Positions 15,316-15,916 of a stretch of 64,000 bases of DNA are shown here, one piece after another. This stretch comes from Escherichia phage PMBT16: the sequence record PP554575; one strand, written 5' to 3'. The notes beneath the pieces were generated by a model, which was not told the DNA's origin, searched no databases, and saw nothing but the letters and a program-made list of their open reading frames with translations. The first letter of the stretch is position 1; the number at the start of each line of letters is the position of its first letter. Made by a program: the position numbers and the translations under genes.

Positions 15316-15625
15316 TATTTTAAGTTATCAGGTTGCCAGAGATCAGGAGGATTTCTAAAATGGATTTCCTCCTTTTGATATTTTACCTACCAGGATATTT
15401 TAAAATCCTTAGAAAATCAGAAAATGGATCGAAAACTAAAATGGATTTTTCATAGCAGGCACGACGAGATGAACCACTCATCCTATCGTCTGCACCATAT
15501 TCCAGACCACCATTACAGATTTCCCGCACATGCTCACATCCTTCTACTAGAACTTCCCCCACTTACCCTTGACCTTTTATAGTAATAATCCAACCACTAC
15601 CTTGAAGTTGTGGCGCAGCTTTCCA

Positions 15626-15713
15626 AGTACTCGATCTGTTTTTCGTTTCAAAGATTGAATTTTCTGAAAATTTTTCTCGATAAATTTCTCAGTACTCGAT
15701 CTGTTTTTCGTTT
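15626..15713. repeat. 23-bp direct repeat AGTACTCGATCTGTTTTTCGTTT (x2, partial third copy near 15774) in a gene-free region
   Basis: Copies at 15626-15648 and 15691-15713; AAATGGAT recurs 4 times in 15357-15800. Confidence 0.6.
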
Positions 15714-15916
15714 TCTGAATCGGATTTTCTGGAAATCGTTCCGGCTCTCGACCTGAAATTTTTGGGGACGAAATCGATTTTTCGTTTTCAGAAATGGATT
15801 TTTAAAATTTCTATATGGGAATATTTTAGTGGATACTATTTTATAGGAAATTGTTACGGATGGTAATTAGCGTGCTAATTAAATTTATTAAATGCGAGGA
15901 GTTCTCATTTAGAATT

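Follow-up and report, generated by a model that had tools for sequence, protein, structure and literature searches.

A non-coding repeat module with a layout conserved across Vequintavirinae genera is a candidate cis-acting control region

Introduction

Replication origins of the iteron type, such as phage lambda ori and the origins of the theta plasmids RK2, P1 and F, contain direct repeats of 17–22 bp that lie in the same orientation and at regular spacing beside easily melted AT-rich DNA, and are present in single copy. Other origins are activated by transcription. The primary origin of T7 lies downstream of phi1.1A/B, and T4 has oriF, oriG and oriE, the last of which carries iterons and primer transcripts and combines repeats with early or middle transcripts. 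Here we analyze a stretch of non-coding DNA that bears a likeness to both kinds of origin. It spans positions 15316–15900 of a 64,000-nucleotide sequence of Escherichia phage PMBT16 (sequence record PP554575), referred to in its full length as the window, and it contains three direct-repeat units, clusters of short motifs and a hairpin resembling a terminator.

Two further kinds of described element are close to this locus. The injection-stop signal of phage T5 is an untranslated region of repeats and palindromes, conserved above its neighboring open reading frames (ORFs), that lies in Repeat Region 3 of the left terminal repeat, at ∼7.9% of the genome, and has DnaA boxes paired in inverted repeats. 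Zones of intrinsic and Rho-dependent termination have a hairpin and U-run past a stop codon and, beyond these, over 150 nt of untranslated RNA that is unstructured, rich in C and poor in G.

The locus shares features with each of these. Like the iteron origins, it has regular direct repeats in one orientation beside DNA that in the window is AT-rich and of low stability, is present once, and has a repeat sequence that is specific to its lineage, being replaced in Phapecoctavirus. Its units, however, are composite and 65–76 nt long, and a second motif cluster stands at a fixed distance of ∼170 nt from them. As in T7 and T4, non-coding AT-rich DNA lies among early genes with candidate promoters directed into it, and the phage encodes a primase/helicase which, according to the rV5 genome paper, is related to the primase/helicases of Podoviridae; unlike those origins, the promoters here are matches to the host sigma-70 consensus only, and there is no sequence similarity to the T7 or T4 origins. 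The resemblance to the T5 signal lies in an untranslated block of ∼1 kb with direct and inverted repeats and palindromes, better conserved than the adjacent ORFs and located ∼8–9% from a genome end. A likeness to terminator zones covers 15304–15625 only, and extends neither to the motif clusters nor to the three repeats. The best explanation of our results is that the stretch forms the left two-thirds of a single-copy, non-coding, cis-acting control module inherited across the Vequintavirinae.

Results

The window derives from a Vequintavirus, an rV5-like myovirus, and its positions 14900–16400 are 99.6% identical to vb_EcoM_bov10K2 and JeffSchatz. Between the genes there is a gap of 970 bp (15316–16284) in which no ORF is conserved, and the stretch belongs to this gap. 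All 121 Vequintavirus records among the matching phage sequences contain the region, 114 of them at a coverage of at least 80%. We aligned 13 Vequintavirus copies and determined the mean pairwise identity of successive blocks. Identity was 85–97% at 15339–15457, 65–78% at 15458–15604, 90–98% at 15665–15814 and 92–99% at 15905–16174, while the 3′ end of the upstream gene together with ∼25 nt past its stop codon (15250–15338) showed 58–72%, against 95–98% for the repeat block.

When the gap was used as a blastn query, the only part that matched outside the genus was a piece of 80–150 nt (∼15884–16028) comprising a Fur-like palindrome and a GC-rich element, which was found in Seunavirus, Mydovirus, Certrevirus and Henunavirus and also in Phapecoctavirus, in unannotated DNA in nearly all of the records listed. 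Direct reading of the related loci showed that the architecture upstream of this piece is common to them as well, in the order GATATTT repeats, a AAATGGTTTT cluster, a spacer of 167–180 nt, three units of 67–76 nt, and Fur-like palindromes. Seunavirus, Mydovirus and Henunavirus all show this order of motifs, three repeats at corresponding spacing, and the spacer. Certrevirus shows a variant form, with CB7 carrying at least five short GKTCTCGATC boxes at ∼30-nt spacing in place of the three long units. In Phapecoctavirus the Fur-like element is kept and a different, unrelated AT-rich repeat array occupies the same place, as would be predicted for a phage-specific binding protein acting next to sites for host factors.

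Across genera, a unit is made up of G(G/T)(A/T)CTCGATC, 2–3 nt, TTTTC, a small AT palindrome, (CG)TATTTTTTCT and then CGAAAAAATTTTT. The boxes start at 15628, 15693 and ∼15767 in the window and, in the numbering of each locus, at 1545/1620/1687 in PVP-SE1, 1540/1616/1683 in GAP31, 1547/1621/1688 in Mydo and 1543/1619/1688 in Hena1, so that the spacing in these four relatives is 74–76 and 67–69 nt. A six-sequence MAFFT alignment was colinear, with 69% column identity, and paired the units one-to-one. GATC is over-represented in the arrays of four other genera (4–6 copies, where base composition predicts ∼0.7). A sensitive local blastn of window 13000–18500 against the syntenic Vequintavirinae loci aligned the repeats and the Fur-like element but not the genes, with one extra marginal match of 44 nt (17248–17289) in the anhysbys locus. 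Proteins encoded next to the module gave no counterparts in the window by tblastn, and the genes on either side of it show no conservation from genus to genus. This conservation of layout across genera is the main new result of our analysis.

No copies of the region were found in E. coli chromosomes or true plasmids; the lone plasmid match, PLSDB CP057073.1 (137,565 bp), is an E. coli ‘plasmid’ record that is in fact a complete Vequintavirus genome. A search of IMG/VR by way of the upstream protein recovered two loci only. We also noted that 16–19 records labeled ‘Campylobacter phage’ (GenBank MG0656xx) are rV5-like coliphage genomes.

The three direct-repeat units occupy 15626–15810 on the + strand. 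A preliminary description of this DNA, made from the letters of the window, had listed a 23-bp direct repeat with a partial third copy near 15774, and both were recovered: the 23-mer AGTACTCGATCTGTTTTTCGTTT is identical at 15626–15648 and 15691–15713, and a degenerate copy with 74% identity to the reference unit is present at 15756–15802. Even when as many as 3 mismatches are allowed, the 22-mer core matches nowhere else in the window, where 0 matches are expected. The repeat extends to 47–57 nt, and composite repeats of 65–74 nt with the core ACTCGATC-N3-TTTTC can be delineated. As is characteristic of iterons, that is, of at least three direct repeats in the same orientation at regular spacing, the starts of the units lie 65 and 74 nt apart. 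Unit 1 (15626–15690) comprises AGTACTCGATCTGTTTTTCGTTT, the palindrome AATTTTC-T-GAAAATT and TCGATAAATT, and is paired in the alignment with the first unit of PVP-SE1, GAP31, Mydo and Hena1. Unit 2 (15691–15755) begins with the same 23-mer and is the best conserved in the alignment, at 95–98% identity. The degenerate unit 3 (15756–15810, with GGGGACGAAATCGATTTTTCGTTTTCAGAAATGGATTTT) is 96–97% conserved in the genus and contains a hairpin at 15758–15795 (−15.9 kcal/mol, z −2.5), whereas the RNA of units 1 and 2 folds no better than shuffled sequences. The TCGATAAATT element of unit 1, at 15677–15686, is invariant in the 13 Vequintaviruses and is not kept in the other genera; we take it to be an exact copy of the high-affinity motif of H-NS.

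A second group of motifs lies to the left. GATATTT occurs three times on the + strand (15314, 15377 and 15394; 15314–15400 overall, by motif search), and is found three times in GAP31 and Mydo, at 12-nt spacing, twice in Hena1, CB7 and anhysbys, and once in PVP-SE1. It is followed at 15402–15452, also on the + strand, by a cluster of GAAAAT and AAATGGAT(C/T) with an 8-nt AA/TT periodicity (p 0.002), within and beside which 15399–15428 shows a mean pairwise identity of 97% in the genus. The four copies of AAATGGAT that had been described earlier were confirmed at 15358, 15422, 15439 and 15792. Only six copies exist when both strands of the entire window (128 kb) are counted, so these are four of the six, against an expected count of 0.05 in 585 bp. 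A homologous AAATGGTTTT cluster is present in PVP-SE1, GAP31, Mydo and Hena1, and the left cluster aligns across genera at 55%.

Two hairpins lie at and just past the end of the upstream gene. A strong one lies across its stop codon (15304–15339, + strand; −21.1 kcal/mol for the RNA fold, z −5.7). The second sequence type found in Vequintavirus differs at these positions, and inspection of the alignment by eye suggests a hairpin there too. The second, GGAGG-N17-CCTCC, had been given earlier as a palindrome at 15346–15372, and these coordinates are exact. It begins 31 nt past the stop codon and is followed by TTTTGATATTTT, with the T-run UUUUGAUAUUUU 3′ of the stem, which gives the feature at 15346–15384 (+ strand) a terminator-like appearance (−15 kcal/mol, z −2.4). 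This hairpin is nearly invariant in 13 relatives, and in slur16 both sides of one stem pair are altered (GGAGAA/TTCTCC) with pairing kept. It is restricted to Vequintavirus, where it forms a 40-nt insertion relative to the other genera. A stable hairpin and a U-run near a gene end, as found at 15346–15372 with UUUUGAUAUUUU, are the hallmarks of an intrinsic terminator, and the predicted terminator is probably weak because of its long loop (15 nt).

The motif cluster and the repeats are separated by a spacer (15453–15625, 173 nt, + strand) of variable sequence and fixed length, which measures 172–174 nt in all 13 Vequintaviruses. In the window it is 34% C and 13% G, and across the copies C is 29–35% and G 12–16%, with a C/G ratio of 1.9–2.9. 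Among all 173-nt stretches of window 1–27000, the half with genes coded on the + strand, it has the highest skew of C over G. The runner-up is an untranslated tract immediately beyond the final gene of the array (26050–26222), which may be another zone of Rho-type termination. The spacer has no conserved ORF and no conserved RNA fold (RNAalifold −0.17 kcal/mol), and as C-rich, G-poor, unstructured and untranslated RNA of at least 80 nt it resembles a rut site. In four other genera its length is 167–180 nt and its sequence is not conserved. The left third of the locus (15304–15625) is best read as the probable end of the upstream transcription unit. This reading applies to Vequintavirus only, as the other genera lack a C-rich spacer, and termination leaves both the motif clusters and the three repeats without an explanation.

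To the right of the repeats, 15793–15892 is AT-rich and ranks second among the least stable 100-bp stretches of the window (z 3.8). It contains a promoter-like site directed leftward (15866→15838, TTACCA-17-TAAAAT), called as a consensus match only; PVP-SE1, GAP31, Mydo and, weakly, Hena1 have a leftward promoter-like site in the corresponding place. Further right and outside the stretch, at 15884–16075 (+ strand), Fur consensus matching identified Fur-box-like palindromes together with the GC-rich element CGGTGRTTGTCTC. The palindromes lie at 15917–15935 and 16053–16071 and match 15 and 17 of the 19 consensus positions, respectively, the latter being the best Fur-consensus match of the window. 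This part is a tandem duplicate (15884–16028 and 16053–16130), in which a Fur-box-like palindrome AATGAKAATCATTCTC is followed by the GC-rich element with the invariant core CGGTGRTTGTCTC, and the GC-rich part recurs a third time, inverted, near 25.3 kb (25250–25310, − strand). DNA identity of the Fur-like/GC-rich element is 71–88% across five Vequintavirinae genera and Phapecoctavirus. An overlapping 43-aa ORF on the minus strand is not coding.

A second leftward promoter-like site (16171→16143, − strand; TTGACA-17-CAAAAT, with an extended TG) is kept in the 13 Vequintaviruses, where A2 and T6 of the −10 hexamer are retained. Equivalent sites are present in PVP-SE1 (locus L016, 2045–2073), GAP31 (L017, 2069–2097), Mydo (L018, 2078–2106) and locus L007 (3283–3311). 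In Seunavirus and Mydovirus the site follows a 61-aa DUF7170 gene on the minus strand, and in the Phapecoctavirus anhysbys it follows a different minus-strand gene of 88 aa that has no Pfam match. In Vequintavirus the promoter-like site is kept without a minus-strand gene, and it faces the Fur-like boxes and the repeat units.

These features raise the possibility of purely transcriptional control, with the locus combining a terminator or insulator and upstream sites for nucleoid-associated or phage regulators of the H-NS, Fis or Fur type, such that the repeats and motif clusters would govern how strongly, or when, the Fur-box promoters and the small-gene array are active. The terminator-like hairpins and rut-like tract directly past the upstream gene fit such a role, as do the promoter-like sites with Fur-consensus matches that the stretch abuts, the AT-rich DNA with its small palindromes, the genus-invariant TCGATAAATT, and the many consensus sigma-70 promoters of the downstream array. 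However, the closest candidate for a rightward promoter lies 100–300 bp downstream of the repeats, and these occur once in the window, where the operator of a regulon would recur at many promoters. No Fur-like site of at least 13/19 is present within 15316–15900, the first one starting at 15917, and the H-NS-like motif is lost in the other genera. A spacer of fixed length without sequence constraint, combined with exactly three direct repeats, would also be unusual for simple operators. We regard purely transcriptional control as possible, and nearly as likely as the origin function discussed below; the two readings are not mutually exclusive.

The earlier view of the stretch as non-coding was borne out by the comparison of genomes. 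No ORF is kept in one frame across the 13 Vequintavirus copies, which differ by indels of 1–2 nt, and the annotation of the gap in relatives is inconsistent, with differing tiny ORFs on either strand or none at all. ORF calls deposited on the conserved module in other genera are probably spurious, and include PVP-SE1 gp202 and gp203 (L016, 1331–1758), GAP31 043 and 043A (L017, 1327–1726), Mydo 054 (L018, 1421–1774) and KpS11 191 (L021, 1430–1774).

High conservation without coding capacity could instead reflect one or more non-coding RNA genes, expressed as a leftward transcript from 15866→15838 or 16171→16143 or as a rightward leader, with the repeats acting as RNA motifs. The conserved leftward promoter-like sites and the hairpins in unit 3 and at the left end would suit this explanation. 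A search of Rfam with the window and six related loci nevertheless gave no match at E ≤ 1 apart from one at chance level (22 bits against a gathering score of 126 bits). Neither the spacer nor the GC-rich element (RNAalifold −3.8 kcal/mol) shows a conserved fold, units 1 and 2 fold like shuffles, and the conserved parts consist of short motifs and their spacing, as is typical of DNA sites. An RNA gene is thus an unlikely explanation of the locus.

We also considered a site related to packaging or the genome terminus, of the pac or cos kind, and decayed coding sequence. Repeats bearing GATC in two clusters superficially recall the pac site of P1, and the tiny ORFs annotated here in several relatives could be taken as remnants of genes. 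The ends of the virion DNA, however, lie elsewhere. Published read analyses of LL12 and Gotham found a non-permuted direct terminal repeat of 459 bp, the Gotham repeat (1–459) maps to window 27547–27089, and several independent GenBank records open or end exactly at 27089 or 27547. The tiny ORFs are inconsistent in frame and strand, and a block conserved above the neighboring genes is the opposite of what decay would produce. Both possibilities therefore appear extremely improbable. The announcement paper describes the genome of bov10K2 as circularly permuted, although the repeat edge is where version 2 of its record begins. The terminal-repeat region could not be aligned outside the genus, and Mydovirus records that look end-proximal are circularized with arbitrary openings.

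With the physical end defined by the terminal repeat, the stretch lies 11.6–12.2 kb from it, or 8.6–9.0% of the genome, and in Gotham the repeat array lies at 8.3–8.5%. This position, close to that of the T5 injection-stop signal, would be compatible with a pause site for DNA entry, in which the end-proximal ∼11.6 kb enters and is expressed first and the module halts transfer until release. Such a checkpoint in a subfamily of myoviruses might even be tied to the iron status of the host by the neighboring Fur-box promoters. The untranslated, well-conserved repeats recall the T5 signal, and Vequintavirinae and T5-like phages are both highly sensitive to daunorubicin, with a phenotype resembling abortive infection; Drexlerviridae, however, are sensitive as well. 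Unlike in T5, DnaA boxes were not found at the locus, and the terminal repeat is 459 bp rather than ∼10 kb, with the site lying outside it. The ten largest ORFs of 16285–26100 all belong to PHROG families of unknown function, with no recognizable A1, A2 or dmp, and small genes with consensus promoters are present on the inner side of the gap too. Phages of the rV5 type are not known to transfer their DNA in two steps. We consider a pause site very improbable, and a link to iron status is at least as remote.

The gap is flanked on the left by a + strand gene of 110 aa that ends at 15315 (stop codon 15313–15315) and on the right by a + strand gene that starts at 16285. On either side lie small + strand genes with consensus sigma-70 promoters (TTGACA-16/17-TATAMT). 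The downstream array continues from 16285 to the genome end with many such promoters, and its end-proximal ∼11.6 kb (16285–27547) consists of small genes with no assigned function that are transcribed toward that end. Just 5′ of the ribosome-binding site of the 16285 gene, the window lacks a 44-nt segment CCTAACTGACCGGGTAGGAGAGAATGAAGGCTTGCAAACCTGGT at 16238 relative to its closest relatives, the deletion lying among repeats of the ACCTGGCGGGGCC type. The primase/helicase gene is at about 3000–5100, more than 10 kb upstream. The gap consequently interrupts one long co-directional array and does not mark the border of a replication block, so that its earlier placement between replication genes and an early-gene array is right only loosely. 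To speak of a ‘second’ origin goes beyond the evidence, as the locus with which the stretch had been compared (26063–28526) contains the 459-bp terminal repeat, and hence the ends of the virion DNA. The repeats themselves, whose lack of conservation the preliminary description had named among the findings that would refute it, proved to be conserved well beyond the genus.

Discussion

The module described here is real, non-coding and unusually deeply conserved, and searches of the literature for accounts of the region, for transcriptomes of rV5-like phages and for Fur boxes in these phages brought none to light. Its single occurrence, the fixed number, order and spacing of its repeats, the lack of an RNA-structure signal, and the presence of unstable DNA and promoter-like sites point to proteins that bind the DNA sequence-specifically in a defined spatial arrangement. 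The known type of element that the module most resembles is a replication-origin region, with candidate iterons, easily opened DNA and potentially activating transcription. In keeping with this, the repeat sequence differs by lineage, and the Fur-like sites beside it, which resemble sites for a host factor, extend across subfamilies. We tentatively favor an iteron-type site of protein assembly, with a replication origin as its probable role, shielded by a terminator and rut zone.

If the module is such an origin, two layers may be envisaged. The first (15304–15625) would stop transcription arriving from the upstream + strand genes, by means of the stop-codon hairpin, the hairpin with its T-run and then the 173-nt unstructured, C-rich and G-poor tract, which could serve as a loading (rut) site for Rho. 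In the second, the motif sets would provide a platform of fixed geometry for sequence-specific DNA-binding proteins, comprising the three copies of GATATTT, three to four copies of AAATGG(A/T)TTT and, 167–180 nt further on, the three composite direct repeats of 65–76 nt. These repeats, with their core ACTCGATC-N3-TTTTC, small AT palindromes and A/T tracts, may act as iterons for a phage-encoded binding protein. The duplex would open at the adjoining AT-rich DNA (15793–15892), and nearby promoters for host RNA polymerase, including the leftward ones directed into the repeats, could activate or prime initiation in the manner of the T7 primary origin and T4 oriE.

Several observations weigh against an origin. 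Analysis of GC and AT skew showed no turn at the stretch and followed transcription, and the skew analysis of the rV5 genome paper located no origin and records no change here. None of the nearby genes could be recognized as initiator-like or DNA-binding; the flanking proteins match only families of unknown function, and none of those scanned against Pfam has a DNA-binding domain. DnaA boxes (TTWTNCACA) and IHF sites (WATCAANNNNTTR) are absent from window 15300–16300, and the other genera have scattered single DnaA-like matches only. With 65–76 nt, the units are far longer than the classical iterons of 17–22 bp. The AT-rich stretch of low stability is not kept in Seunavirus, which has CACACACGCACACGCG at that position and A6T5 tracts inside the repeat units instead, and only in Vequintavirus is the spacer C-rich. 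All promoter calls are matches to the host sigma-70 consensus only, and the −10 hexamer of the 15866→15838 site is weakened in several Vequintaviruses. The repeats of Hena1 are without GATC. Helical phasing of A/T tracts (10–11 bp) in the repeat block was not significant (p 0.09), and neither was the resemblance of GATCTGTTTTTCG to the 13-mers of oriC (11/13), which is equaled by 51 matches in the window. It is the lack of a recognizable initiator and of a skew signal, the atypically long units and the poor conservation of the AT-rich stretch in Seunavirus that keep our confidence in an origin low.

The preliminary description had called the locus origin-like or regulatory. Fixed repeats, low duplex stability, single copy number and a layout held across genera speak for that proposal, but none of these features shows initiation of replication or transcription, and termination, protein binding and origin function are what we infer from the sequence.

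Phages related to rV5 are widely used as candidates for therapy and biocontrol. While the surrounding genes turn over, the module is the sole DNA of its neighborhood that can be aligned across the Vequintavirinae genera compared, which makes it a prime and precisely delimited target for mapping of the origin, for a search for the binding protein and for engineering. It should be retained when such genomes are minimized, and it may serve as a cis element.

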